In this document: positions 6,311 to 27,505 of the stretch, one piece after another | Layout: each line of letters begins with the position of its first letter | Numbering within the stretch: position 1 is the stretch's first letter | IMG/VR virus record: IMGVR_UViG_3300025035_000051 | Coordinates: 1 to 38,163 of that record | Strand: one strand, 5' to 3' | Length of the DNA stretch: 38,163 nt | DNA from: a virus | Taxonomy: Duplodnaviria; Caudoviricetes | The notes under the pieces: model-generated | The model's database searches: none | The model's input: the letters and a program-made list of their open reading frames with translations, nothing else | Told to the model about the DNA's origin: nothing | Program-made: the position numbers and the translations under genes

Positions 6311-7182
6311 TCTAATAAATCTAGCTGAGTGAATTGCTTAGAGCTATTATAGGCTAAAATCTTATTATCAGTTGTCAGATTGTCTGCATCAAATTTAGGT
6401 ATTCGGGGTATAGGAACTAGGAATACCCTCTCTCTATATCGTAAGAGCATACGTATATTACGAAATATAATCTCTGGAGAAACGTCCCCATCAGGGCACA
6501 AAAATACTTCCTTCAATATTGAGATCTTCATAGCCTGCGCTCTGGTTACTATTGAACTTAGATAGGCTACAAAATTATCTCCAAAGGAAAATCCGGTAAA
6601 CCATCCCTCACACACAAAGTTTATATCATAACCCACAGCTCTATCAAAATTCATTAGGATACTTATCCTCTTTGAGGAGGGATTTCTGTATTTCATCTTA
6701 CTATTTCCAACAGCTCTAGATATGAAATAATCACATTTTCCAGTACCTAATTCAAAGTTAGGTACTACCAATCTCCCCTTGTAATCACCGATACCTTCTC
6801 GTATCGAATATCTATTTATTGTATCATCTGTTAATCCCCTCTTGTAGGCGTAATCTCGTATTTCTCCCTTATCTGAAATAACCCTAGACACCTCATCCAA
6901 ATTATAATACACCTTATCTTCTCTTTCCAAATATTCTAATATATCAGACTCTGAAAAGAAAGGGTCATACTTTAATTCCGGGATTGCAGAATATATGTTC
7001 TGTCCATAGGTAGAACATCTGTGACAAATGTACCTGTGGGTAACCAGGTTTATGTATAGATGCCCTCCGTCGTCTTTGGTCTTACCATTCCTTTCACAAA
7101 AGGGACAATTAGTAGACACCTCTTTACCAGAGGTACCTGAGGATCGGATATCTTTAAAAATTGAACTCAAACTCTTCCACAA
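6235..7182 (-). CDS. DNA primase (DnaG/T4 gp61-like)
   Basis: Zn-binding CPFC...HLY...CHRC; GRLVVP; KYRNP; TOPRIM VCEG and DGD. Confidence 0.88.
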   Translation of the reverse strand: MWKSLSSIFKDIRSSGTSGKEVSTNCPFCERNGKTKDDGGHLYINLVTHRYICHRCSTYGQNIYSAIPELKYDPFFSESDILEYLEREDKVYYNLDEVSRVISDKGEIRDYAYKRGLTDDTINRYSIREGIGDYKGRLVVPNFELGTGKCDYFISRAVGNSKMKYRNPSSKRISILMNFDRAVGYDINFVCEGWFTGFSFGDNFVAYLSSIVTRAQAMKISILKEVFLCPDGDVSPEIIFRNIRMLLRYRERVFLVPIPRIPKFDADNLTTDNKILAYNSSKQFTQLDLLDMDNSNKYKLMCKNLEVWYNSIFPL

Positions 7183-7747
7183 TTAGCATCTCTGACACAG
7201 TTGAACTCAAGATGTGCAAGGGAAATTTTTGTATTAAACTCTTACAATTATTTACAACTGCCCTATAGCTGCCTCCTGGAAATTTAGACTTATTACAGTG
7301 TGTCCAAAATAGTAATTCTAAGTAATCACAGATTTTTATAATCTGAAATTCGGGTGACATGTCCTCTTTCCATTCATTATATTTAGTGTGGAAGTCTAAT
7401 CCGATTTCTTTGAAAGCTGAGAATGTCATATCCTTAGCTACAGAATCTACAGTAGACATTATCTCCCTACCTAATCTTAATTTTAGAGGTAGTGGAAAAT
7501 CTGTAGTAACGGTTTCTTCAAAATCATGAAATAGAGCGCATTGTAACAAATTCAGTCTGTCTAAAGAATACATTACTTTAGTTCTAGCCATACCCTGCGC
7601 TATCTCATTCCCAATTAGAATGGCAAGAGCTGCTACTCCAAAAGAGTGTTCAGCTAAATTTTGTCTGTCCTTAAACGGCATATTGTTAAATCTAGTAGTA
7701 TACTGCATAAGGAAAATTTTCGATAAAGAATCATTCTTTGCTATCAT
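7154..7747 (-). CDS. HD-domain 5'-deoxynucleotidase (YfbR-like)
   Basis: R..., QNLAEHSFGVA, ALFHDFEE, KICDYLE motifs. Confidence 0.88.
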   Translation of the reverse strand: MIAKNDSLSKIFLMQYTTRFNNMPFKDRQNLAEHSFGVAALAILIGNEIAQGMARTKVMYSLDRLNLLQCALFHDFEETVTTDFPLPLKLRLGREIMSTVDSVAKDMTFSAFKEIGLDFHTKYNEWKEDMSPEFQIIKICDYLELLFWTHCNKSKFPGGSYRAVVNNCKSLIQKFPLHILSSTVSEMLIVEEFEFNF

Positions 7748-9365: not shown

Positions 9366-10946
9366 TTAATCTCTGTTTAAAAAATCTGTCAGAACACTAG
9401 GATCTGAAAACTGGTTATAGCGAGAATTCTCATAAATATCTTTTCGAGACCTAGAATGCTTCATGGTTACTGGATTAAGTTGGTCAACAAAATCCACTAT
9501 GTACCCATTGTTATCCTTCTTATCCGGAGATAATACTCTACTAGTTCGCTGCTTATTCAAGATGTCATTTTCAAATCCTTCTCCGGAGAGAAGTACCATC
9601 CATTTACACCCTGGAAAATCAACTCCCACATTGTAAATGTTTGTTCCTATCAAGACGTCTATTCCACCCGAATTAAATTCAGATACTACATCACTGATAG
9701 ACGTTCTTGAAGACTTCCCATACTTTAATTCCCATGTCTCTTCGGCTGATGAAAATACGCATCTCTTGTTATAAGGGATATTTTTTAGCATGTCTAAAAT
9801 TATCTTACCGTGATTTATTCGGTTTACTAATACCAGGCATCTCTTGTTAAAAGAAACAATCAGAGATATACATTCTACCGCCCTAAAATTTCTAGCAAAA
9901 TTAGCCACAATAAAAGTCTTATAAATTGCCGTATAATTACTCATAGTAAACTTAGGGTATTCCATCTTGTACGCTAACCATATAACATTTCCCCTAGATT
10001 TATAACCCTGCTCTATCAAGTACTCATCAGATATTCTCTTTATCACTTGTCCAAATACTTGCTGTATATTCATGTCTCTAACATGCTCGGAGGGGTTACT
10101 CTCATTCATGTAGGGAGTACCTGAACATGCTACTGCAATATCAGGATAATTTATGTCCATCATCCTAAACAGAGAATACTGGAACATATCTGCAGATCCA
10201 TCCTGTATTTCATCTACTATAAGAAAATCAGTAGAAGTTATTCGGTTAAATAATACCAAATCCTTCCTTCTCAGCCTACCAGATTCTTCTTTCTTTAAGA
10301 CGTTAAATACAGAATTTACAACACACACCAATATATCACAATAATAATCCGCCCTACCCCCATATAATTTTCCCACGGACTCAAATCCACGTAGTCTAAA
10401 CCTATCAAACATGTTATCAGCTAGGGGGCTCTTCCTTACTATTATTGTAACTTTACCTCTGGAATTCTCATTGTCTAAGTAGTTCTGAACTGCACAAATT
10501 AGCATCTCGGTCTTTCCCCCACGTGTAGGAACAAAGATTATGCCTCTTCTCTTCTGCAGAATGGTTTCTACTACTGGAGTTTGATAATCAGGTCTTAGAC
10601 GGAGGGTATCTGTTATCCAATCAAAAATTGGATAAGTAAGTTCTTTGGATTTAGTCTTTACCCTAAAGTCTCTGTAGGTCAACTGATCCTGAGTGTATCC
10701 CATTTCTATGAGGTACTTATTTAAGTAGTGTAACAATCCTGAATAAACCCACAGTACCTCGTCGGAGGTAGTCAGATAGATCTTCTTCTTGGTGCATCGT
10801 ATAGTGGAAACGTCTCCTGTCCTCTCGTCAACTATGTCCTCCATTTCTTCGAAAGTTATAGTAAAAAGTTCTTGCAGAAGATACACCTTATCATTTGGCA
10901 TACCCTCTACAAAAGTTTTTAGGTCGTAAACAGATATATATACCAC
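9366..10946 (-). CDS. superfamily 2 DNA helicase (UvsW-like)
   Basis: PTRGGKT, VDEIQ, SGTP, GVDFP, QRTSRVL; GTG start overlapping the upstream TAG. Confidence 0.9.
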   Translation of the reverse strand: MVYISVYDLKTFVEGMPNDKVYLLQELFTITFEEMEDIVDERTGDVSTIRCTKKKIYLTTSDEVLWVYSGLLHYLNKYLIEMGYTQDQLTYRDFRVKTKSKELTYPIFDWITDTLRLRPDYQTPVVETILQKRRGIIFVPTRGGKTEMLICAVQNYLDNENSRGKVTIIVRKSPLADNMFDRFRLRGFESVGKLYGGRADYYCDILVCVVNSVFNVLKKEESGRLRRKDLVLFNRITSTDFLIVDEIQDGSADMFQYSLFRMMDINYPDIAVACSGTPYMNESNPSEHVRDMNIQQVFGQVIKRISDEYLIEQGYKSRGNVIWLAYKMEYPKFTMSNYTAIYKTFIVANFARNFRAVECISLIVSFNKRCLVLVNRINHGKIILDMLKNIPYNKRCVFSSAEETWELKYGKSSRTSISDVVSEFNSGGIDVLIGTNIYNVGVDFPGCKWMVLLSGEGFENDILNKQRTSRVLSPDKKDNNGYIVDFVDQLNPVTMKHSRSRKDIYENSRYNQFSDPSVLTDFLNRD

Positions 10947-11299
10947 TATATTTTCTTAAATTGCTTAAGTAATTCTGGATTCTTGGTCAACATAAAATAT
11001 ATGTATAAGGAAACATAGTTACGTAAATCCATCAGAGTATCCAGAACTGTCTCATCCTTTACCTCAATGCTAAATCCATTCTTAAACAGATTCTGTAACC
11101 TATCCCATTTTCTAGCTGAATTTTCGTTTACAGACATTATACCTCTCTTCTGCCAACTTCCTCCGTAATCCCTGTCTTTTTTTATCATCAATTGAGAACA
11201 TTTTACTTCCAGCTCACGAAGTAACTCTAACGCCTCTTCATCCAGCTTATAATTTTCTATAGGTTCTAATAAATTTTCGTCAAATGCAACTGTCTTCAT
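10946..11299 (-). CDS. nucleotide modification associated domain 1 (Nmad1/DUF1599-like) protein
   Basis: KKDRDYGGSW...KWDRL.N...ETVLDTLMDLRNY matches the K..DYG.SW / K..RL / DT..DL.NY pattern. Confidence 0.8.
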   Translation of the reverse strand: MKTVAFDENLLEPIENYKLDEEALELLRELEVKCSQLMIKKDRDYGGSWQKRGIMSVNENSARKWDRLQNLFKNGFSIEVKDETVLDTLMDLRNYVSLYIYFMLTKNPELLKQFKKI

Positions 11300-11301
11300 A
11301 A

Positions 11302-14172
11302 CTAAGGTATTTGGGTTAATCTAATTTTCTGTTTTATTCTGTGCGTAGAAGTCAGGTGTATAACTCCATTAAAGGCTCGAGTCTTATCTACTTCCCATTC
11401 TTCCTCAACAGATTCTTCTTCCAAAACCTCTACAGAAATATATGCGTTTCGGGCAAACAGCGTATTTAGTCTTTGAACTCCAATATCTCTTCCAGATATT
11501 TCTAGTTCTACCTGGGTCTTAGAATCATTATGACTTAGTATTTCTACTCCAACACAACTGCCCCAACTCATCCCCATATCAATATCTATTCTGTAAGGGA
11601 CGTCATTAAGCCAGTTAAATCTGCTCTCCAACTCATCCTCGCATTTATACTTTATAAGGAATATCATCTTTATTATCTCTGATGGGTGTACAGAAAATTC
11701 AAGTGAATCATGTACGGTGCCCATAAAATGAGAATAAAATTCATTATCTATAAGGTATTTGTGTATAGAGATAATTGAAGACAGGGTAATGTCACTGGCT
11801 GAACTCTGGATAGGAGAATTCATAGCTGCTCTAACTGCAGAATTATATAAAGATCGCTCTCTTTTATCCTTACTGTACTTGTATTTCTTCAATGAAGACA
11901 GGTAACGTCGTCTTCCAGTAGCAGAGTCAACATAACCATCTCGCTCTCCCATAGCTACTGTCTTGTCTATCCACTTTTTAACCTTAGGGAATCTCTTGAA
12001 TATGGAATCTTGAACTGCTTGAGCTTCTTCGACTGAACCCCCCAAAATTTCAGATAGTGTATAAACACTCTGGCCATACAACATGCCAAAGATAACTGCC
12101 TTAGCATTTGACCTCTGTAGTTTAGATACTTCCTCATAAGTTACTCCAAATGACTGGCTAGCTACAAATTTATGTATGTCTAGACCGTCTTTGTAAGCTT
12201 GTCTTAAATGCTCGTCTTGAGATAAAGATGCAAACACCCTCACCTCAACCTGAGAATAATCTGGAGCCATTATAACCCCGCCCTCAACAGCCCATTCACT
12301 AACAAAACAAAACTTAATATCTCCGAAGGATGGAAGCATGTGAAAATCTCCACTTATACGACCTGTCGCTACTGCAGCTAGATTATAAGAAGGAAAATAC
12401 TTTCCGTATTTTTCATAATGGTTACGCAACACATTTAAATATTTAGATATCTGACTTTGAATTTCTAGCTCCTCTCTTATATAAGATACAATCTCTTTCT
12501 GATATTCAAATTTGGCATTCTTTACTATATTTTCCTTGGCATCTACGTTAAAAGAGGGAAGACCTGTTGGGGTAGTTTCCAGAGAATCACACTTTAAAAA
12601 ATCAAATACGTACTCTTTTACTAGATTACCCCTAACAGTCATGTCGTACTTAGATGCTTTATCCCTTATATCTTCTTCATCAGCTTCTGGATACTTCTCT
12701 CGCATCTTCTTTTGGTAGAATTTCTGGGTCTGTGGAGCTAGATTAAATTTCGCATGGGCATCCGAAACCCTTTTTACATATAATTCCTCTAGATAAGATA
12801 ACAATGGTTCATTTATAACTACACCTCTAGATTCTATATCAACAAATGTTTTAGTTGCCTCCAATAGCAATTGATAACTCCATCCCATATTTGAATTCTC
12901 AGGCTTAGCAAATTCTCGTTTAAAGTATTCCCTTAGGTACAGCATAACTATAACATCCATTCCAGCGTACTGGCATAACACCTTAAAGTCTATGTTTATC
13001 AATCTTCTGTCTTTTATCTTAGAAAATTTAGCGAATTCTATATCTCTAGATTCATCCCAGTCTTCCTCAATGTCAAAATACATTTTACTTAGGGATTTTA
13101 GACTTAAAGAGATACCTGTATCTCTCTTCACCCCTATCAGTAGATACGCCATAAGTAAAGTGTCATCTATGAGAACTACCTTACGTAGGTCTATCTTCAA
13201 TTTTTCAAAACACCACGATATATCATACTTAGCATTGTGACAATAGAACGGGATCATTTCTAGCAATTCTACAAGAATCTTCTTAACCTTTCCCTCCTCC
13301 CATCTACTCTGGTCTTCTCCTCTAACTTCAGCCAGTCTTGGATGATATAAATTTATATAATAGCCTGTTAGCTCTACTTCATCAGCTATGCTAAACCCTG
13401 TTATATATTCCTCGCTCTCCTTTAGGTCAACAACTGAGGAATCCTTAGAATTAGTAAACACCGAAGATGTCTCTATATCAAACGAAATATCCTTTATCCT
13501 ACCCGACTTATAATAATCCTTCAACCTTTCAGCGTATTCAACAAATTCCAGATAAGACAGATACCTGGTATTAAACTTAATTGCGTTAGGGGAAGCTCCT
13601 CCGGAAATTGCTTTGTAAGCCTTAATGAATACTTCTAGGAACTTAGCCTCATACATATCTGGGCTGTAATTAACAGCAGCTGCAGAGAAATTAGGAAGTA
13701 TTATTACATTTCCAAATCCAAAATCTCTCCTATACGTCATCCCGACACTCTTGGTTATAGTAAGTTTATCTTCACAAAAGAAATCTCTGGCTTCAGAACC
13801 TAAAGGTATTATAATCTTTAAATTAGGTAACCGTGCTAAAGATTGGTACATATTTTCTGAACACAGACTTATCACAGTTCGCTTATTTTTAGCAGATGAT
13901 AATTCCTTATCATTCTTATCCAGTCCGCACCTAACTAACGATGTAAATCCTATCTTAGTTCTATTATCCATCAACTTAGACTTTACTAGAGAGGGGAGGA
14001 GGGTCAATCTGTCTGAAGACTCTCCAAATAAATTATTACCATTATCACAATCCTTGGAGGGGATACTCTTTACGATAAGAACTTCTACACTAGGGTTAGT
14101 GTATTCTGCCAGCATTGGCATTTTACACCTTATGCCTAAGGGACATTCTCCAATAAAATCACAATTACTCAT
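11302..14172 (-). CDS. polA: family A DNA polymerase with 3'-5' exonuclease and N-terminal uracil-DNA-glycosylase-like domain
   Basis: Exo I FDIET, Exo II HNAKYD, Exo III YAGMD; TGRIS, motif A DYSQVEVR, motif B RSNAKAVIFGMLYG, motif C TVHDS; first ~190 aa follow the family-4 UDG pattern. Confidence 0.95.
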   Translation of the reverse strand: MSNCDFIGECPLGIRCKMPMLAEYTNPSVEVLIVKSIPSKDCDNGNNLFGESSDRLTLLPSLVKSKLMDNRTKIGFTSLVRCGLDKNDKELSSAKNKRTVISLCSENMYQSLARLPNLKIIIPLGSEARDFFCEDKLTITKSVGMTYRRDFGFGNVIILPNFSAAAVNYSPDMYEAKFLEVFIKAYKAISGGASPNAIKFNTRYLSYLEFVEYAERLKDYYKSGRIKDISFDIETSSVFTNSKDSSVVDLKESEEYITGFSIADEVELTGYYINLYHPRLAEVRGEDQSRWEEGKVKKILVELLEMIPFYCHNAKYDISWCFEKLKIDLRKVVLIDDTLLMAYLLIGVKRDTGISLSLKSLSKMYFDIEEDWDESRDIEFAKFSKIKDRRLINIDFKVLCQYAGMDVIVMLYLREYFKREFAKPENSNMGWSYQLLLEATKTFVDIESRGVVINEPLLSYLEELYVKRVSDAHAKFNLAPQTQKFYQKKMREKYPEADEEDIRDKASKYDMTVRGNLVKEYVFDFLKCDSLETTPTGLPSFNVDAKENIVKNAKFEYQKEIVSYIREELEIQSQISKYLNVLRNHYEKYGKYFPSYNLAAVATGRISGDFHMLPSFGDIKFCFVSEWAVEGGVIMAPDYSQVEVRVFASLSQDEHLRQAYKDGLDIHKFVASQSFGVTYEEVSKLQRSNAKAVIFGMLYGQSVYTLSEILGGSVEEAQAVQDSIFKRFPKVKKWIDKTVAMGERDGYVDSATGRRRYLSSLKKYKYSKDKRERSLYNSAVRAAMNSPIQSSASDITLSSIISIHKYLIDNEFYSHFMGTVHDSLEFSVHPSEIIKMIFLIKYKCEDELESRFNWLNDVPYRIDIDMGMSWGSCVGVEILSHNDSKTQVELEISGRDIGVQRLNTLFARNAYISVEVLEEESVEEEWEVDKTRAFNGVIHLTSTHRIKQKIRLTQIP

Positions 14173-17126: not shown

Positions 17127-18158
17127 CTATATATTTAATAGTTCTCTGCCCCTTTCAAGTAACACAGATTTATCCAGGGTAGTTTCGTAGAAATCTGTTA
17201 TAAAGGAATGCAGAACCTCTTCTGGGGAATCTCCCTTTAATTTATTCTCTATATGCTTCATCTTTATAGATGCGCTAGACCTGTTGATTATTATCCTAGC
17301 ATATTTATTCAACTCGGCATCTAACTCCTCTAAGTTTTCTGCGGCAGGGTTATAATCAATATATACATAAGAAGAAACAGGTATTTCCAATTCTCTGAGC
17401 TCTTTTGTAGAATTAACCTTTACTAACCAGGGAGACACAGTATTCTGTATATGTTCTGTATTTAAATCTGAATCTATCCACAAGATACCCCTTTTCTTAG
17501 AAAATTCAGAATATTTATGCTGTATACATGAACCTACACAAGTTACATTTCCGATTACCTGGGGAATATGGTAATGGCCATTTATTATCTTAAATCCCTT
17601 TCGGAATGAATTAGGGTTCAATTCGGCTTCTGAAGTCTTGAAATTATTGAACTTGAATCCATTAAAATCTAAGTGAGTAAACGCTAAATCTGCTCTGGAT
17701 TCACTGGCTTTGAGGGCAGCAGATGTAAAATTCTTATCGTGACTGTATGGTATTAGGGAGATGAGTTTACCTTCGAGTTCAAATTCTTCGGGTTCTCTAA
17801 TTATCCTAGCCTCAGATAAGGAGCCAAAGTGGTCTACTGAAGTGACAGCATTGGATAAGATTCCCATGTCGTGATTTCCCAGTATTATTATATGCTCAGC
17901 ACCTACTTCTTTGCAGGCTTGGGTTATTTTAGATATACAAACTCCCATAGCAGACAATACCTCTGAAGAAACAATCCCGATACTGTTATAAGTATCTCCG
18001 CCATTTATGACTGCTCTAGGTTTTCTTTCTCGTATCTGGGAAGATATCCAGTCGGCACACTGTATAATATTATCCAGCCTTAATCCGTATCCACTCTTGG
18101 TTTTCATGTCAAACCTAGAATACTTATCTCCCTGTATATCGGTGTAGTATAATATCAT
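17127..18158 (-). CDS. SbcD/Mre11-like metallophosphoesterase nuclease (T4 gp47-like)
   Basis: TDIQ (variant of DxH), GGD, GNHD, FTH, GHYH; SbcC nearby. Confidence 0.9.
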   Translation of the reverse strand: MILYYTDIQGDKYSRFDMKTKSGYGLRLDNIIQCADWISSQIRERKPRAVINGGDTYNSIGIVSSEVLSAMGVCISKITQACKEVGAEHIIILGNHDMGILSNAVTSVDHFGSLSEARIIREPEEFELEGKLISLIPYSHDKNFTSAALKASESRADLAFTHLDFNGFKFNNFKTSEAELNPNSFRKGFKIINGHYHIPQVIGNVTCVGSCIQHKYSEFSKKRGILWIDSDLNTEHIQNTVSPWLVKVNSTKELRELEIPVSSYVYIDYNPAAENLEELDAELNKYARIIINRSSASIKMKHIENKLKGDSPEEVLHSFITDFYETTLDKSVLLERGRELLNI

Positions 18159-18895
18159 AGTTTTATGGTAAGTAAGTCCGTGAACTCTGTTAAATTGTTT
18201 ATCTTGACAAACGGTTCGAAGAAACTAATCTTCTCAAATAAAACGATAGAGGAGTTAGTGAATGTCTCTATGTGAGATATTCGCCATTCAGGGTATTCTC
18301 TTTTATAATACTCATAGGTGCCCTCTAGGAATTCTTTCTTAGAGCCAACCTCAAAACCTAAGAGTCTGCTATACACCTCATAAGATTTCTTACCCATTTT
18401 TAGATAAAAAACAGAACAGTCGTTAACTACAACATACTTTCGGGTATTCCTAAAGACATTATCTAGGACTTTCTTATACTTCTCCTGGTATTTCTTTAGA
18501 GTAAAATCATTAAAGTCTACCAGAGTTACGTCAGGGATTCCGTGTATGAATTCGTAGTCAAACATATCTTGGGCAGTAACTAAACTGGCAGGATTATTGG
18601 CTTTTAGGATTTCCCTACATTCAAGATTCAGATCATTGAATACGCATTGCACTCCAACCTCTTTGAATATCCTACCCGTTAATCCTACTCCACCCAACAA
18701 ATCTAAGTAAGTGTTGTACTCTCCTGATATTACCTTATGAATATTTGAATAGGCTGTCAACCTGAACTTAAAGTCAGAATCTACATTACCCTTTAAAAAT
18801 TCGTTGGTGTAAGGGGTGTCGTGAATTCTCTTCCTTTTGTCCTCTCTGAGAGAGGAGATAACAACAGGAGATTTCCCCTTGATTATTAATTCCAT
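18155..18895 (-). CDS. putative class I SAM-dependent methyltransferase
   Basis: Motif I YLDLLGGVG, acidic motif II FNDLN, QDMF, strand-4 LVDFN; lacks DPPY/NPPY or PC motifs of canonical DNA methyltransferases; starts 2 nt after the hypermodification fusion gene. Confidence 0.65.
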   Translation of the reverse strand: MELIIKGKSPVVISSLREDKRKRIHDTPYTNEFLKGNVDSDFKFRLTAYSNIHKVISGEYNTYLDLLGGVGLTGRIFKEVGVQCVFNDLNLECREILKANNPASLVTAQDMFDYEFIHGIPDVTLVDFNDFTLKKYQEKYKKVLDNVFRNTRKYVVVNDCSVFYLKMGKKSYEVYSRLLGFEVGSKKEFLEGTYEYYKREYPEWRISHIETFTNSSIVLFEKISFFEPFVKINNLTEFTDLLTIKL

Positions 18896-18897
18896 AG

Positions 18898-21800
18898 TTA
18901 GTTATTTACTTCAATATGACAAGACACTTCTTCAGGTCTAGTTATTCTTCTTTTAGCTCTCTTTACTTCGGGATTTTCAGCGTAGTGATTAACAAACACC
19001 GGAAAATCCTTATCCATCATTATAACCTCTCCAGTCTCTCTAAACCAGTTCTGTTTTAAGGGATGAATGCCTAAATCAGTTTTTACTGACTCCATCCTAA
19101 GATAGTCAGGTAATGTAAGGCTTCTAGCATCCCAAAAATCTTGGAAATCCACGTGATCCCATTTCTCTGATTCCGCATTGACAATTCTGTCGTAGAACAT
19201 ATCCTGATAAATATTAGGATATCTTCTATTCTTTCTAAACCACGACTTATAACAGCATAGGGTGCTCTCCAATGTGAAGAAATTTACATCCTTGCTGAAA
19301 GTTCTATCGTGAAATCTCAATTGGGCTTCTGAAAGTAATATGTGAGATTCCTTCTCCAGCCATTCCATCACTACTCTTCCGTACCCCTTAAAGTCAGGAT
19401 TTCCCTTATGCCAGTCTAAATCATCTCTTCCTAAGACTTTACATAACCCATTTCTAGGAGATACTGTTCCGTCTTTCTCGTATAGCATCAGGCTAGGACA
19501 ATTTATATTTACTCCTGCTATTCTTAGATATTCTAAGTAAGAATAAGTAGATAATCTGCCATACCACTTAAACCCATTTATAACTTTATCCCATAGAATA
19601 TTGAAATTAGACATCTGGTCAGTTCCGAATCCCTCTGAAAAGAACTCCACCTGAGTCTTACCGTTAAGATTCTTCATATAATCCTGCCACATTTCAACCA
19701 TGTGACCCTTTTGATATCTTCTGTCTATATCATATTGTAGGCGTTTCCAATTTGCTCTATGCCAACTCTCAAAGTCTTCGAAAGTAATAGCGTACAAGTT
19801 TGGAAACCTGTTAAATATAACCCACGTAGTGCAAGGATTTTGGGTACATCCATTTATAAAACAAAACCATAATTTCTGCTCTTCAGTAAATTTATACTTA
19901 TCCCATAAGTGTTGGAACACATAATACACTGCTCCGGGATGGGATTTATACTGTAGGTGGAATTCATAGAATTTTAGAAATACCTCTCGCCTAAACTTAG
20001 GTTCTCTAAAATCATCTCCAACCTTTAGATTACTTACTTCAATTGCAGCTCTGCCCTCTGGTATACCTGTCTCCCCAATGAACAATTCCTTAGTTAAAAC
20101 GAATTCCTCATTTTTATCCTCTGGGGTAATTAGAGGAGTTCTGAGAGTGTTTTGGACAAAACTACCCAAAGTGCTATTATCTGGGCATTCCGTAGATGTA
20201 GTTCCCCTAGAATTTGCTACAGACTCTGTCTTGACCTCTGCAATATCCTTAAGTTTTCTCTTAACAGAATTGTCTCTGTAAACATTTACTTGTGTCGGAT
20301 AATCTCCAAGTGCAGGCGTTAAATGATTCATACTAGACATTCTGGGCTTAGACCCTATAATCCAAAGCATACTAGTGTCGCTTATCAACGATGGCATTTT
20401 CTCTGTTAGGTACGACATTACTTTACCTTCATAAGTGGGATGAAATTCTAACCCATTATACGTAAACGGCATCTCCTGCTGGTAATCGGTATAGCCCTCT
20501 TCAAATATGTTTACATAATTTAAATTGAAACAGTTAACTTCAGAGTCAGACGTTAAACTAGGACTATCAAAAGTTTTTAAGAAGTTCTTAGTATTAACTC
20601 CAGATACCTTTCGAATTATATTCAGCCTCTCTTCAATAAGCTTCATCTTATTTGGACCTATCCCTATCAAATACACATTCTTTAGGTTAGGAAATCTACT
20701 TATGAATTTTGTTAAACCATAAAGAATAGAGATAGTAGAATTAGTACTCCCTGCAGGTATAATTATGTTCTCTATAAAAACTGGTATGTTCTGAACCTGG
20801 AAAGCCCCTGTTGCGTGAAATCCATGAACATAGTCGTCTGAAGCATCCTTAGGTGGAGTTATTCCATAATTTAGGTAGTAATCTATATTCCCTCGCTCTT
20901 CTAATAAATCTTTTGCCTTCTTCTGAAGATAGGGATTGTATCCCACAGGTTCGTACTGGAATTCAGACCCAAACCACGTAGCCATCTTTACCATATCTCT
21001 ATCAAAAGAACTTTTTGGATTAGTGGCTCCTACAATATGAATGCTCCCCATTCCGTAGTGCTTAGCTACGCAAGTACCCATAGGCAATTGGGGTGACTTT
21101 AAGCTAGCTCCGGATATTAACTTAGATTCAGGTATAGGTTTGAACTGACTTACCATCCAAATACATTGTCTTAACTTAGAACCATTTATTCCCCCGTATC
21201 CTAAAGGGGCAAAAGTATCTTCTCTCTTAAAATACATTTCTCCTACCTGTTGGACAGGAGTTAGGTTATAAAGGTGCTCTTCCCAGTGAATAGAATTTCT
21301 GTCCATAGTTGATGTATCCGGAAATACAGAGTACATTAAGCTCTTATCTAAAAGGGCTACCTCAGGAGTCTTTACTGCAACCGTTTTAGGCTTAGTAGTC
21401 TTAATAACTTCGGTGTAAATACCTTCGGACTTGTCCTCTATAGCTTTTCCGGAATACTTATTTATGTTTATGTAGTCGCTTCTTTCGCAGAACTCAACAA
21501 ATGTTTTCTTACTATCTGGACTGTTGTAAATATCCTCAAAGAACTTCTCTCCTAAATGAGACAAGGGAACACTGTAAGAATTGTAGGATAGAGCACATCG
21601 CATTGAATCTCCTAATTCCTTCTCCTCATCTAGGGACATCTCGAAATCTCTAACCATGCCAGAACGTCCAAGCCACATAGAATCCTTAGCAGGTTCTTTA
21701 CCACTTCTGTATTTAACTCTGGCTAAATATTCTGGCTTGTCTTCTTCTTCGTAGTTGTAATAATAGTTGGCTACTAAATCTAATTGAGGACTGCGAGCTT

Positions 21801-22167
21801 TAAGATAGGCAGGTCTGAATCTAAAAGAACCTGTAATGCCAGCTCCCTCTATTATTAAATTATGGTTTTTTAAAACATCTTCTATGAAGTCACTCCATAA
21901 TTTAGCAGTAGCCTGTCTACCAGATACTGAATCAAAGCCTTGGAATCTAAATACTTCATGCTTCACGTAGTACTTCCCTAGGATAATGAGATTTAACTCT
22001 TTTATGAATAATCCGTGAGGTTCTACCTTTCCATTAGTGCTTTTGTACATAAAATCCTCAAAGGTATACCCTTGATTCTTTAAGAAGTCTAATAGCATAA
22101 ATAATCTGGTAGATTTTCCTGATGCGGATATCCCCTTTACGTTAATCAAATACCTGTACTCTTTCAT
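18898..22167 (-). CDS. three-domain thymidine hypermodification protein: P-loop (5-hmdU DNA kinase-like) + fold-type-II PLP enzyme + clade-2 aGPT-Pplase/amino acid:DNA transferase
   Basis: aa 1-~240 GISASGKST; aa ~290-625 KRED...GGINGSKLRQ, PAGSTNST, HPTYEGK (ACC deaminase/D-cysteine desulfhydrase-like); aa ~715-1089 DFR..RREVF..FY..HL, DRRYQK, YGRLSTYSYLEYL, RNGL, FTLESTLC.YK, RYP. Confidence 0.85.
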   Translation of the reverse strand: MKEYRYLINVKGISASGKSTRLFMLLDFLKNQGYTFEDFMYKSTNGKVEPHGLFIKELNLIILGKYYVKHEVFRFQGFDSVSGRQATAKLWSDFIEDVLKNHNLIIEGAGITGSFRFRPAYLKARSPQLDLVANYYYNYEEEDKPEYLARVKYRSGKEPAKDSMWLGRSGMVRDFEMSLDEEKELGDSMRCALSYNSYSVPLSHLGEKFFEDIYNSPDSKKTFVEFCERSDYININKYSGKAIEDKSEGIYTEVIKTTKPKTVAVKTPEVALLDKSLMYSVFPDTSTMDRNSIHWEEHLYNLTPVQQVGEMYFKREDTFAPLGYGGINGSKLRQCIWMVSQFKPIPESKLISGASLKSPQLPMGTCVAKHYGMGSIHIVGATNPKSSFDRDMVKMATWFGSEFQYEPVGYNPYLQKKAKDLLEERGNIDYYLNYGITPPKDASDDYVHGFHATGAFQVQNIPVFIENIIIPAGSTNSTISILYGLTKFISRFPNLKNVYLIGIGPNKMKLIEERLNIIRKVSGVNTKNFLKTFDSPSLTSDSEVNCFNLNYVNIFEEGYTDYQQEMPFTYNGLEFHPTYEGKVMSYLTEKMPSLISDTSMLWIIGSKPRMSSMNHLTPALGDYPTQVNVYRDNSVKRKLKDIAEVKTESVANSRGTTSTECPDNSTLGSFVQNTLRTPLITPEDKNEEFVLTKELFIGETGIPEGRAAIEVSNLKVGDDFREPKFRREVFLKFYEFHLQYKSHPGAVYYVFQHLWDKYKFTEEQKLWFCFINGCTQNPCTTWVIFNRFPNLYAITFEDFESWHRANWKRLQYDIDRRYQKGHMVEMWQDYMKNLNGKTQVEFFSEGFGTDQMSNFNILWDKVINGFKWYGRLSTYSYLEYLRIAGVNINCPSLMLYEKDGTVSPRNGLCKVLGRDDLDWHKGNPDFKGYGRVVMEWLEKESHILLSEAQLRFHDRTFSKDVNFFTLESTLCCYKSWFRKNRRYPNIYQDMFYDRIVNAESEKWDHVDFQDFWDARSLTLPDYLRMESVKTDLGIHPLKQNWFRETGEVIMMDKDFPVFVNHYAENPEVKRAKRRITRPEEVSCHIEVNN

Positions 22168-23159
22168 TTTAATCTTGTTAATGCTGGACTAACTAGCAAG
22201 TCCGTTACTGACTCTAAGCCATATTTTCTAGAGTGACCCAACGCTTTGTTGTAATCAAAGGAGTGCTCCTTACTCATGCAAAGATCTAAATGGGGTCTAA
22301 GATTCTTCAAGACAGAAGAATTTAACGCCATTAGGTTCATATTTCTCCTAAAATTCTCTCGGTTAGACACAAGTAATTTATAAAGTTTGTCAGAAATAAG
22401 ACCCTGAGAATTATCTACTATGCTATCCACATTTATAGGAAGACCGGGAATCTTAGAAATTCCAGTTATAAGTTTGCGGCAGGTTGCTTCTCCCATTCCC
22501 TTAACCACGCTAGGAATTTTATCTGAGGTATCTCCTAATAGGGCTTTCTCAAATATAAATAATTTCTTGTTTACACCTGTTATTCCCTCAAAGTTCTCAG
22601 GAGTTATATACTGGGGTGCTTTGCCTTTAGAATAAGCATTTGGTCTATACAGATGTGCTCCGTACTCTACCGATTGAGCCCAATCCCAGTCGTCAGTTAT
22701 TAAGATAGTTTGATAACCACTATTTACAGAATTGTATAAGACAGATAAATACATACCAATATCATCAGCTTCAAATCCTGGAGCTGAACCTATTCGGATT
22801 CCTAAATCGGGTAGAATCTCTCTTAATATAGAATCTTGGGTTTCTAATAACTCTTTCTTGGAGAACTCTTCTCCCTTTTCAGGAGTGCAAAAATCGTCTA
22901 AATAAGACTTGTCCTTCTTCTTATACCCAGAATATATTTCCTTCCGGAAGTTGCAAGCCCCTCCCGTCATACAAAAAAAGACTAAGTCAGGCTCTTGGTC
23001 TACAATAATACTTCCTAGGGAAGACAGAACTCCTTTTACTATTCCGGTAGGGGTCTTTACTCCATTTACAGTAAATGATAATTTCCTTAAGGATGCTATA
23101 TGTAGGCACCTGTGCATAAGGTGATCTCCATCAAATATCAATATTTTATAAGGTCGCAT
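22164..23159 (-). CDS. 5'-3' exonuclease / flap endonuclease (T4 RNase H-like)
   Basis: FDGD, FRKEIYSGYK, EADD, TDDWDW, LLGDTSDKIP..KGMGE. Confidence 0.92.
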   Translation of the reverse strand: MRPYKILIFDGDHLMHRCLHIASLRKLSFTVNGVKTPTGIVKGVLSSLGSIIVDQEPDLVFFCMTGGACNFRKEIYSGYKKKDKSYLDDFCTPEKGEEFSKKELLETQDSILREILPDLGIRIGSAPGFEADDIGMYLSVLYNSVNSGYQTILITDDWDWAQSVEYGAHLYRPNAYSKGKAPQYITPENFEGITGVNKKLFIFEKALLGDTSDKIPSVVKGMGEATCRKLITGISKIPGLPINVDSIVDNSQGLISDKLYKLLVSNRENFRRNMNLMALNSSVLKNLRPHLDLCMSKEHSFDYNKALGHSRKYGLESVTDLLVSPALTRLK

Positions 23160-24084
23160 GGCTAAACAGTGTTAGAGAGTCGTAATAATCCGTTAAGTAA
23201 TCTTTATGGTGTTCTTTAGGAAAGTACTTTGCCCTACCATAATTCTTATCTCTCTCACTCTGAGTACAGTACTTATGATACTCACACAAAGAGTGTTCTA
23301 TAAATCTGAGATGGACACTTTTATCAGGAGATAGATACCAAAAGGGTAATCCCGAGGATTCTATGAACTTAGGGAATTTTAAAGTTAAATTGTACAGGGC
23401 TTCTTTACGTGAAGAATCTCCTATCAAGGTATTACCGTAAATCCGCTTTAATCCCTCTACTGCTCCTGGACCTACATTAACGTAGGAGTCAAAGGTAAAT
23501 CCAGTAATCCCTAAATGTACTAAATTGCAATATATCTCGTAAGCTACAAAATTACCTACCCCCTTATAATTTAGGAGATGGTTGACTAGCTTTAACGGAT
23601 CTCCTTCATCTAAAACTGTTAAGGTATCCTCTAAGGTCTTCAGAAATTCATAAAATACTGTTGTTACGTATCCCTGAAGCTTAGGCATTCCGTGTACTAC
23701 AGGGTAAACAAAGTAAGCATTAGTCATCACGGTTGTACCTAGTTTCCTGTTATCCCTCTCAACTCTTATCAAATCCTCCAAAAATTGAGGGTACTCTTCA
23801 ATGTCTAAGGGCATCCCTCCTGCTAGATTTACTGTATTTATGTTGTTTAAAACAGAAAATACTAAAGTATTTAGTACCTTAATAGGGTAATCCATATTAG
23901 AATTGCGAGCTACGTTGATTATAAACCACACTGTGTTTCTATCTAATTCCCTATAAACATTTGTGTATTTAGTAGTCCCTAGAATAGGATCTTCAGTCCA
24001 GGGAGGTTTATTTTTTAAAATAAACCTCTCATGCCAAATGTTGTGTCTTTCTTGAATAAACTTGAAAAATCCCTCTTCAATCAT
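23146..24084 (-). CDS. clade-1 alpha-glutamyl/putrescinyl thymine pyrophosphorylase-family protein (amino acid:DNA transferase-like, HhH fold)
   Basis: ERH.IW..R.....PPWTEDPIL...KYTNVYRELDR, HhH-like KGVGNFVAYEI, VGPGA..GL, IEHSLCEYHKY. Confidence 0.88.
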   Translation of the reverse strand: MIEEGFFKFIQERHNIWHERFILKNKPPWTEDPILGTTKYTNVYRELDRNTVWFIINVARNSNMDYPIKVLNTLVFSVLNNINTVNLAGGMPLDIEEYPQFLEDLIRVERDNRKLGTTVMTNAYFVYPVVHGMPKLQGYVTTVFYEFLKTLEDTLTVLDEGDPLKLVNHLLNYKGVGNFVAYEIYCNLVHLGITGFTFDSYVNVGPGAVEGLKRIYGNTLIGDSSRKEALYNLTLKFPKFIESSGLPFWYLSPDKSVHLRFIEHSLCEYHKYCTQSERDKNYGRAKYFPKEHHKDYLTDYYDSLTLFSHATL

Positions 24085-26371: not shown

Positions 26372-27505
26372 TTATTTTTGTTTATTTAAAAATCCTCCTA
26401 TGAAAAATTTGTCGGACTTCAGCAGCCCCTCCCACAAATGAGAATCCTTTCTGATTACTTCGGGGGATAAAATCTCCATAATTTCGGAGGCAGCTAATTT
26501 ATTTTTTAAAAATGCTAACTGTAAAAGAGGGATAACCAAATAAGAATTCATGCTCCGTGTAAGAGCAAATTCGGATAGAGATTCTTTTAACCTCCCTGTA
26601 AGAGGATTGAGTATTCTATTAAATAATTCAATATAAGCCGAAAGGTTACTATCCAAATTCTTCCATGAAGTTTCATTAACAGGGATGTGCTTGTTTATAT
26701 CGAATTTATTAGGAGACTCTTCTTCGAATAAAATCTTGTCCATCACATCAAAATGTCTCTCATAAATATGGAGAGAACCCGCATTGTGAAAATACGTTCC
26801 CACTTCTACACAGAGAATACTAGCTACTAATTCTTGCAGGAATGTCCATTCAAAGTAATTTATCCCTGTCAACCCAAATATGACATCGTTACTTCGCATA
26901 TTTGTAATACAATGTAATTTGTTATTGCGTATCAAAAATTGCACACTTAATGTGCAAGGAGTATCCAAAGTCTCATTTGTAACTAAGTTATCTCCCGCTA
27001 TGGGTATAACTATGTAAGCTTGTCTACTAGAAGGATCTTGAGTGAGAATATCTATTACATTCTTTACCTGATTTACTTTGAATTTTCTAGAATATACTTT
27101 CGGAAATAGTAAAAAATCTTCTCCCTCACTCCTCGTTACTAAAAAATCCTTAGGAGGATTCACTTCTAAATAAGAGATTCTACCATATCCTGCTCTCCAG
27201 GATATCTGGTCATCAGAATAATTAATAGCTCTAGGTAAAAATGGAGATAAATAAGTGAGGTCTCGGCTTCCAGAAATAACCCACACAGTCTCAGCTATCT
27301 GAGCTACTAGATTATTTTTTCGAGCAGGATTACGAAGTATCCTATCTAAAGGATTATCTGAACTGATTGTGTAACTGATAATTTCTTTAATGGTAGACTC
27401 TGTCCTACTATTAATAGATATTTGTCCTGTAGATTTTAAATCTTTCAGGGATCTCACCATAACTTCATCAATTCCTGAAGCTGGATTAGATTTAAATAAT
27501 GACAT
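26372..27505 (-). CDS. thymidylate-synthase-family enzyme, probable dUMP hydroxymethylase
   Basis: E..W, AGYGR, DPSSRQA, catalytic TPCT, MRSND..FG...IN, SLHIYERH; Asn at the dUMP/dCMP specificity position; hypermodification genes nearby. Confidence 0.82.
   Translation of the reverse strand: MSLFKSNPASGIDEVMVRSLKDLKSTGQISINSRTESTIKEIISYTISSDNPLDRILRNPARKNNLVAQIAETVWVISGSRDLTYLSPFLPRAINYSDDQISWRAGYGRISYLEVNPPKDFLVTRSEGEDFLLFPKVYSRKFKVNQVKNVIDILTQDPSSRQAYIVIPIAGDNLVTNETLDTPCTLSVQFLIRNNKLHCITNMRSNDVIFGLTGINYFEWTFLQELVASILCVEVGTYFHNAGSLHIYERHFDVMDKILFEEESPNKFDINKHIPVNETSWKNLDSNLSAYIELFNRILNPLTGRLKESLSEFALTRSMNSYLVIPLLQLAFLKNKLAASEIMEILSPEVIRKDSHLWEGLLKSDKFFIGGFLNKQK

Follow-up and report, generated by a model that had tools for sequence, protein, structure and literature searches.

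The locus described here raises the question of what a methyltransferase-like gene does directly behind a gene for thymidine hypermodification. It lies in the 38,163-nt record IMGVR_UViG_3300025035_000051 (the window, meaning this whole stretch of DNA), a linear virus contig that is 28% complete, and consists of an open reading frame (ORF) of the class I S-adenosylmethionine (SAM)-dependent methyltransferase family, which we abbreviate together with its homologues as MT, and of a triple fusion of a 5-hydroxymethyl-2'-deoxyuridine (5-hmdU) DNA kinase, a pyridoxal phosphate (PLP)-dependent decarboxylase and an amino-acid:DNA transferase (AADT); decarboxylase genes are referred to as PLP genes. 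Judged from sequence, we lean towards the reading that MT acts on DNA which has already been modified, N-methylating its serine-derived side-chain amine. MT is likely to represent a tailoring family of thymidine hypermodification that has had no name so far, and the genomic evidence supports this well. The ORF and the modification genes of the window, with their matches to proteins of Salmonella phage ViI and of phage M6, are the following:

18155..18895, minus strand: class I SAM-dependent methyltransferase-family ORF (MT), 246 aa, ATG start
18898..22167, minus strand: 1089-aa triple fusion of 5-hmdU DNA kinase, PLP decarboxylase and AADT
21604..22149, minus strand: HMUD2 P-loop 5-hmdU DNA kinase domain of the fusion, residues 7-188 (Pfam, E 1.9e-20; match to ViI gp243, E 9e-9)
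20281..21318, minus strand: PLP-dependent decarboxylase domain of the fusion, residues 284-629 (phrog_3650; 39% to ViI gp226)
18937..20016, minus strand: AADT domain of the fusion, residues 718-1077 (phrog_3271; 34% to the serine:DNA transferase ViI gp247)
23146..24084, minus strand: HMUDK_hel (aGPT-Pplase clade 1) gene (E 3.4e-43)
26372..27505, minus strand: thymidylate synthase (TS)-family gene, likely a dUMP hydroxymethylase (match to M6 gp58, E 6e-19)

The first-pass annotation had described MT as coupled to the fusion, starting 2 nt after its stop. The spacing was read correctly, as 2 nt separate the TAA stop of the 1089-aa ORF from the ATG of MT, the stop of which overlaps the start of a downstream SbcD-like gene. 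However, this gap proves nothing, because, of the 29 gene junctions counted from 9364 to 36730, 22 measure at most 10 nt (16 of them at most 2 nt), and it was therefore dropped as evidence for a linkage. The coupling itself stands on the conserved synteny in other phages.

Linkage from the side of the methyltransferase (METHYLTRANSFERASE) was counted in five scans, which gave 38 loci; leaving aside the window's own record, these correspond to 26 contigs and, after near-identical copies had been collapsed, to 22 distinct contexts. The gene labels at these loci rest on Pfam and NCBIfam; custom hidden Markov models were built from these loci and match them by construction. Scans of viral contigs with single-sequence and three-sequence queries were empty, and narrower sub-alignments were required to find MT loci; a GTDB scan with one MT sub-alignment gave 45 pattern matches, none of which was confirmed. 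Among the closest relatives (near clade), AADT lies at a distance of up to 6 kb from MT in 10 of the 12 relatives with context and directly upstream of it in eight. The contig of one near-clade locus (L020) ends 122 nt upstream of MT and carries kinase, HMUDK_hel and TS genes downstream, and that of another (L009) ends 387 nt upstream of MT with no modification gene seen on the contig. The flanking genes otherwise vary among the near-clade loci (terminase, primase, PolA, TET/ParB), and in L003, which has another gene setting, the genes are not fused and follow the order kinase-PLP-AADT-MT-HMUDK_hel-TS.

Counted from the side of the AADT, using the best 80 of 563 confirmed viral AADT stretches, many of them on short contigs, MT is present in 17 of the 80 loci, adjoins AADT in 13 and recurs in several parts of the AADT tree, and a PLP gene is present in 46. 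The co-occurrence of MT homologues with hypermodification loci, which had been named earlier as a check on the proposal, is thus found in both directions. AADTs that are more than 70% identical to each other occur with PLP alone, MT alone, both or neither, which suggests one donor and interchangeable tailoring. MT is an optional tailoring module of the AADT cassette, which has been repeatedly gained or lost.

Several other observations were made at these loci. A modular cassette that is met very frequently is TET/JBP-[PLP and/or MT]-AADT-kinase, with an estimated ~1200 stretches (L044-L127), within which AADT-kinase fusions (L093, L116, L119) and a PLP-kinase fusion (L122) occur. Inteins with an HNH endonuclease interrupt the AADT gene in L024:6010-8004 and the 5-hmdU kinase gene in L021:9727-11388, and a divergent PALP-family gene (L063/L075:1258-2337) occupies the slot that is held by MT in the close relatives L064/L073.

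Two independent relatives at ~50% seeded the profile search for the MT family, which comprises 175 clusters at 50% identity. The alignment of 144 rows used below contains 141 of the best 150 listed sequences, the window protein and three relatives; fragments, duplicates and one spurious long match were left out. Conserved are [DE]xx[AG]GxG, [DE]88, D110, D127-F-N-x-F-T132, D159, Y175 and Y/F189, and the sequence motifs on which the first reading of the gene was based, DLLGGVG (65-71), NDLN (87-90) and VDFN (126-129), are all found in the protein. The key positions in the window are:

18683..18703, minus strand: motif I, D65-LLGGV-G71, SAM-binding glycine loop (G69 in 143/144, G71 in 144/144)
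18632..18637, minus strand: N87-D88, acidic end of strand 2 (position 88 D or E in 144/144), presumably the SAM ribose-binding position as in class I enzymes
18500..18517, minus strand: D127-F-N-D-F-T132, motif IV position, in register with the D of the RsmD DPPF
18419..18421, minus strand: D159, second near-invariant acidic residue, end of strand 5 (D in 142/144, E in 2/144)

The AlphaFold model (pLDDT 95.4, pTM 0.92) shows a seven-stranded class I Rossmann fold with the glycine loop after strand 1 and an acidic residue after strand 2. By its modelled fold MT is a member of the class I SAM-methyltransferase superfamily, and its description as methyltransferase-like is borne out by this model, by the structural matches and by the conserved residues of the SAM site.

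No Pfam or NCBIfam family matched the window protein, and PHROGs gave only phrog_28702 (unknown, E 0.005). MT is no canonical N6-adenine or N4-cytosine DNA methyltransferase, as the window protein has neither their motif IV, (D/N/S)PP(Y/F/W), nor a match to their Pfam families: [DNS]PP[YFW] occurs anywhere in only two of the 144 members, the window protein having DFND at this place, one member (P0109) retains DPP at motif IV, and Pfam D12 matched a single member of the alignment (E 4e-5). Nor is it a canonical C5-cytosine DNA methyltransferase, since the catalytic Pro-Cys after strand 4 is found in none of the 144 members within residues 119-140; the weak similarity to these enzymes is limited to residues 63-105. 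The lack of the DPPY/NPPY or PC motifs, which had been noticed in one protein, consequently extends to the family. Look-ups of 10 MT clusters yielded no functional name, a search for longer fused forms (595-2000 aa) found none, which is weak evidence, and the isoelectric points of the family (median 7.7) are uninformative.

D127 is kept in 142 of the 144 members and stands, in the profile alignment with RsmD, at the position that amine-methylating enzymes use in motif IV. In amino-methyltransferases, the first residue of motif IV binds the amine nucleophile; a literature search on the catalytic Asp of Trm1 was empty. The alignment of the MT profile with Escherichia coli RsmD runs end-to-end over 130 columns (E 2.5e-4), placing D127 on the D of DPPF, although the DPP(F/Y) or DP(F/Y)G motif of the RsmD/Trm1 type is replaced by DFNxFT in the MT family. 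A phmmer search of MT against PDB gave nothing significant. Foldseek placed the amine methyltransferase NmbA on top, with TM scores of at most ~0.6 and no close solved relative; NmbA is also the top sequence-profile match of the family, the profile matches of which further include the small-molecule N-methyltransferases DesVI-type and TylM1. The VIA structural scores, which represent a second look at the top 1000 of Foldseek, ranked the N,N-dimethyltransferase Trm1 first (Z 15.9, rmsd 3.1, 202 aligned), followed within ~1.3 Z by RlmO, a TrmM-like protein and RsmD, and RsmC is also among the closest folds. We would expect the pair of near-invariant aspartates, D127 and D159, to suit a cationic amine.

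As for the donor, which the first-pass annotation had considered unreadable from sequence, the clade of the enzymes points to a likely one through the matches to ViI gp243, gp226 and gp247. The fusion AADT matches ViI gp247 (34% identity, E 8e-35) with E967 and C971 invariant, and its PLP domain retains the Schiff-base lysine (K331, corresponding to K92 of gp226). No match was found between the fusion AADT and M6 gp51 or phiW-14 gp109, which do match each other, or between the fusion PLP domain and M6 gp52. The window therefore holds what characterizes the ViI type, i.e. a 5-hmdU kinase, a gp247-clade AADT with Glu and Cys, a gp226-clade PLP enzyme with Lys and a TS-family hydroxymethylase. 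According to passages of PMC8989533, ViI gp247 uses serine via its hydroxyl, M6 gp51 glycine and phiW-14 gp109 putrescine, and triple fusions of this kind were already noted there in metaviromes. Glycine and putrescine were ruled out as donors by clade. Because kinase, PLP and AADT domains match the ViI enzymes, and AADT and PLP domains not those of the glycine route nor the AADT that of the putrescine route, serine is likely to be the donor, so that 5-(2-aminoethoxy)methyl-2'-deoxyuridine (5-NeOmdU) would be formed in this phage. The fusion AADT sits in a distinct subclade, about 27-34% to gp247. Cultured phages with AADTs of this subclade are Glutamicibacter phage Montesquieu (L002), with the order AADT-PLP-two kinases, and Mycobacterium phage Zemanar (L040), with ParB, a TET-like gp2 and AADT.

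We propose the following pathway, the first part of which follows steps reported for the ViI orthologues of kinase, transferase and decarboxylase in passages of PMC8989533. By homology, the TS-like enzyme would make 5-hmdU, which the fusion kinase would phosphorylate in DNA; the AADT would then swap the phosphate for the serine hydroxyl, giving the O-linked serine adduct of thymidine (O-SerT), and the PLP domain would decarboxylate O-SerT to 5-NeOmdU. Finally, MT would transfer between one and three methyl groups from SAM, resulting in N-methyl-, N,N-dimethyl- or choline-ether thymidine. PLP chemistry requires a primary amine, and because of this MT would have to act after decarboxylation in this phage. 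An amine as the target is suggested because it is the group most plausibly common to the serine/AADT cassette and to two further cassettes with PLP and radical-SAM or with aminotransferase genes, and because the acidic motif IV fits. By analogy, the purpose would be a changed, more permanently cationic group in the major groove which evades host nucleases. We consider a choline ether as the end product unlikely.

Decarboxylation is not required by the MT family as a whole, because three complete genomes (G001, G003, G005) have adjacent AADT and MT genes and no decarboxylase detectable by our own PLP profile, PALP, Pyridoxal_deC or PS decarboxylase. The idea that decarboxylation is needed first was therefore dropped as a family rule, and the earlier route, in which MT acts on a decarboxylated adduct, does not extend to such genomes; only 4 of the 17 loci with AADT and MT have PLP as well. 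In PLP-less relatives, MT would methylate the alpha-amine of O-SerT.

The two further cassettes come from more distant clades. The second MT clade comprises six loci (L014-L019, five of them distinct), in which MT lies between two PA0069/SPL-like radical-SAM genes (the first is cut off in L018), and an M6 gp52-like PLP enzyme is present in three of the six. No ViI-type AADT was found in the second-clade records and no classical TS in G011, G014 and G015, and we consider this clade a candidate for an AADT-independent base-modification pathway. Polymerase domains fused to uracil-DNA glycosylase (UDG) occur in L014 and L016. Three of the four loci of the third clade carry MT in a cassette with a ThyX-like gene and an ArgD-like class III aminotransferase gene; the cassette consists of a flavoprotein, MazG or a dUTPase-like/NT5C fusion, MT, the divergent ThyX-like gene, the aminotransferase and a P-loop kinase. 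The fourth locus, L034, has MT among ordinary DNA methyltransferases, and the cassette was found elsewhere in the same complete genome, as predicted before the search. By its appearance, this cassette is a nucleotide-pool route that has not been described and might lead to aminomethyl- or methylaminomethyl-deoxyuridine (dU). Cassettes of this type were seen in L029:6112-11588, L030, L033 and L129 (G016, G019), with MT in three; they adjoin a large polymerase gene, which is of the DnaE type in L033. MT is thus inserted in three different base-side-chain cassettes.

Several results weigh against N-methylation of the serine-derived amine. MT and PLP show a tendency towards mutual exclusion: 4 of the 80 AADT loci have both, 13 MT only, 42 PLP only and 21 neither (naive p 0.002); among the 46 loci with adequate flanks the numbers are 3, 8, 28 and 7, and after clustering of the AADTs at 70% they are 3, 5, 20 and 7, the exclusion being weaker. 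Moreover, MT fills in TET-MT-AADT-kinase the slot of PLP in TET-PLP-AADT-kinase, and the exclusion could be explained by a carboxyl-methylating or decarboxylase-replacing role, too. Both genes are found together in the window, L003, L055, L090, L100, L113 and L127; the last, one of four genome_contigs loci, has PLP-AADT-MT, the order of the window, on a 183 kb contig of a metagenome-assembled genome labelled Victivallaceae; this contig was placed in a bacterial bin and may be that of a phage or prophage. The structural scores do not separate the chemistries, as aminocarboxypropyl transferases and also C-, O- and carboxyl methyltransferases are found within 1-3 Z of Trm1, and the RsmD profile match has an HH probability of just 43%. 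MnmC2 (E. coli MnmC residues 1-250) compared as a single sequence with the MT profile gave E 0.25 over 15 columns. For three of the six radical-SAM loci (two distinct), in which an aldo-keto reductase is encoded, there is no obvious origin of an amine. Another hydroxyl donor is possible, because the AADT is just 34% identical to ViI gp247, and no cultured phage with MT was found by tblastn of four family members against 50,697 phage records. As the contig is 28% complete, further tailoring genes of this phage may lie outside it.

Four other explanations have to be weighed. MT could methylate free serine or ethanolamine to N-methylserine or choline, which an O-linking AADT would transfer to DNA, leading to a similar final base. 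This would fit an AADT of the hydroxyl-attacking ViI clade, the dispensable PLP, the small-molecule N-methyltransferases among the profile matches and the fact that MT adjoins AADT more than any other partner. We regard it as improbable nonetheless, as the scaffold of MT is nearest to nucleic-acid enzymes, the >70% identical AADTs with changing tailoring genes suggest a single donor, and the fused PLP domain could, by established chemistry, not decarboxylate methylated serine. Improbable to the same degree is a carboxyl methyltransferase which esterifies O-SerT and removes its negative charge as an alternative to decarboxylation. The negative association with PLP, the common slot and the three complete genomes without a detectable decarboxylase are what it would predict, but MT co-occurs with PLP in the seven loci named above, the exclusion weakens after clustering, the ThyX/aminotransferase clade offers no evident carboxylate, and D127 and D159 should disfavour one. 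The match to the carboxyl methyltransferase-type CmoM is furthermore confined to motif I (40 columns, E 0.032, single sequence), the CmoM structure scoring Z 13.6.

The fold itself raises another option, since its nearest neighbours Trm1, RsmD, TrmM and RsmC methylate base amino groups: MT might act on an exocyclic nucleobase amine (m2G, m6A or m4C type) of DNA or RNA and accompany the cassette as a further modification for defence. The retained DPP of P0109 and the neighbourhood of L034 would agree with this; nevertheless, PP(Y/F/W) is missing in 142 of the 144 members, MT is placed precisely in three different base-side-chain cassettes, and the genome of L034 has the cassette of its clade elsewhere, so that we give this a still lower probability. 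Lowest of all we place a use of SAM for non-methyl chemistry, i.e. aminocarboxypropyl or carboxymethyl transfer or a SAM-assisted decarboxylation replacing PLP. Enzymes of this kind (TYW2, AzeJ, CmoA, TamK, RdmB) have the same fold and are among the structural matches, MT occupies the PLP slot, and a phage carboxymethyltransferase, CmoX, is known (PMC12783734); yet none of these enzymes outranks the methyltransferases, and in no fewer than seven loci such a role would duplicate that of PLP. Side-chain N-methylation hence remains our preferred reading. An extension of it, in which the family consists of processive N,N,N-trimethyltransferases that make a choline ether on the thymine C5-methyl here, a quaternary-ammonium base of permanent positive charge built on DNA from serine via ethanolamine, and serine-betaine thymidine in PLP-less relatives, and that also finish two undescribed pathways (paired radical-SAM; a ThyX-like/oxidoreductase/aminotransferase nucleotide-pool route to methylaminomethyl-dU), appears doubtful.

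The window further holds a dUTPase and an HD hydrolase in a setting of replication and tail genes, and in addition one weakly supported domain:

10946..11299, minus strand: DUF1599 nucleotide-modification-associated domain 1 protein (E 1.7e-4, under the curated cut-off)

The hydrolase, encoded at 7154..7747, is HD/YfbR-like and labelled dATP triphosphohydrolase in PHROG. It is probably part of thymidine-pool control, because similar HD-hydrolase-like genes flank the TS-like gene in L020-L023. A family A polymerase is encoded at 11302..14172; its unannotated N-terminal ~200 aa resemble a UDG-type domain by eye, and Pfam gave no UDG match at E 0.01.

Our literature search found no description of the MT family, no N-methylated or choline thymidine and no methylation step; Iyer et al. 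2013, reportedly the first description of these gene neighbourhoods, may mention a methylase. Isomerisation, decarboxylation, lyase cleavage and acetylation are the tailoring steps of thymidine hypermodification reported in the passages of PMC8989533, in which no mention of a methyltransferase partner was found; O-methyltransferases are mentioned near 5mYOX genes in passages of PMC13229309. All three fusion domains match the 5-NeOmdU pathway of ViI (gp243, gp247, gp226; passages of PMC8989533) and retain the catalytic Lys, Glu and Cys, whereas that pathway ends at the free amine and the ViI-like cultured phages have no match to MT. The glycine and putrescine pathways of M6 and phiW-14 differ, the window being without a match to AADTs of the gp51/gp109 clade; for the radical-SAM isomerase of the M6 pathway, Pfam likewise detected no radical-SAM enzyme among the 42 window proteins, on a contig that is 28% complete. 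The PaMx11 acetyltransferase gp48, which converts 5-aminomethyl-deoxyuridine (5-NmdU) to its acetylated form 5-AcNmdU (passages of PMC8989533), resembles the proposed role of MT as a last step that caps the side-chain primary amine on a hypermodified T, but gp48 acylates on the glycine route, while MT has a class I SAM fold and accompanies the serine route.

Trm1 (tRNA m2,2G26) and RsmD (16S m2G966) provide the closest fold and the full-length profile alignment, respectively, with the motif IV Asp in register; MT differs by DFNxFT for DPP(F/Y), by 9-15% identity and by its place in phage DNA modification rather than RNA maturation. In the conversion of 5-aminomethyluridine (nm5U) to 5-methylaminomethyluridine (mnm5U) in tRNA, MnmC2, alongside which MnmM acts as N-methyltransferase, methylates with SAM a primary amine borne by the C5 side chain of uracil, as we assume for MT; without profile similarity, this is an analogy and not a membership. 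MT may thus work like PaMx11 gp48 or MnmC2 and belong to neither family. PmtA, which converts phosphatidylethanolamine to phosphatidylcholine, shares the fold class (8ys9, Foldseek rank 17, TM 0.50) and would share the formal chemistry if the choline reading holds, but is no closer to MT than dozens of unrelated class I enzymes, so that the lipid parallel is likewise an analogy.

If N-methylation by MT is true, the family would represent a common, missed module yielding several new DNA bases, because it is present at roughly one in five of the closest AADT loci (17/80). It also marks two further cassettes which resemble base-modification pathways not yet known. A cationic base of this kind, methylated or choline-bearing, would be relevant to the protection against restriction and type IV nucleases, to the packaging of DNA and to its enzymatic labelling by means of SAM analogues.

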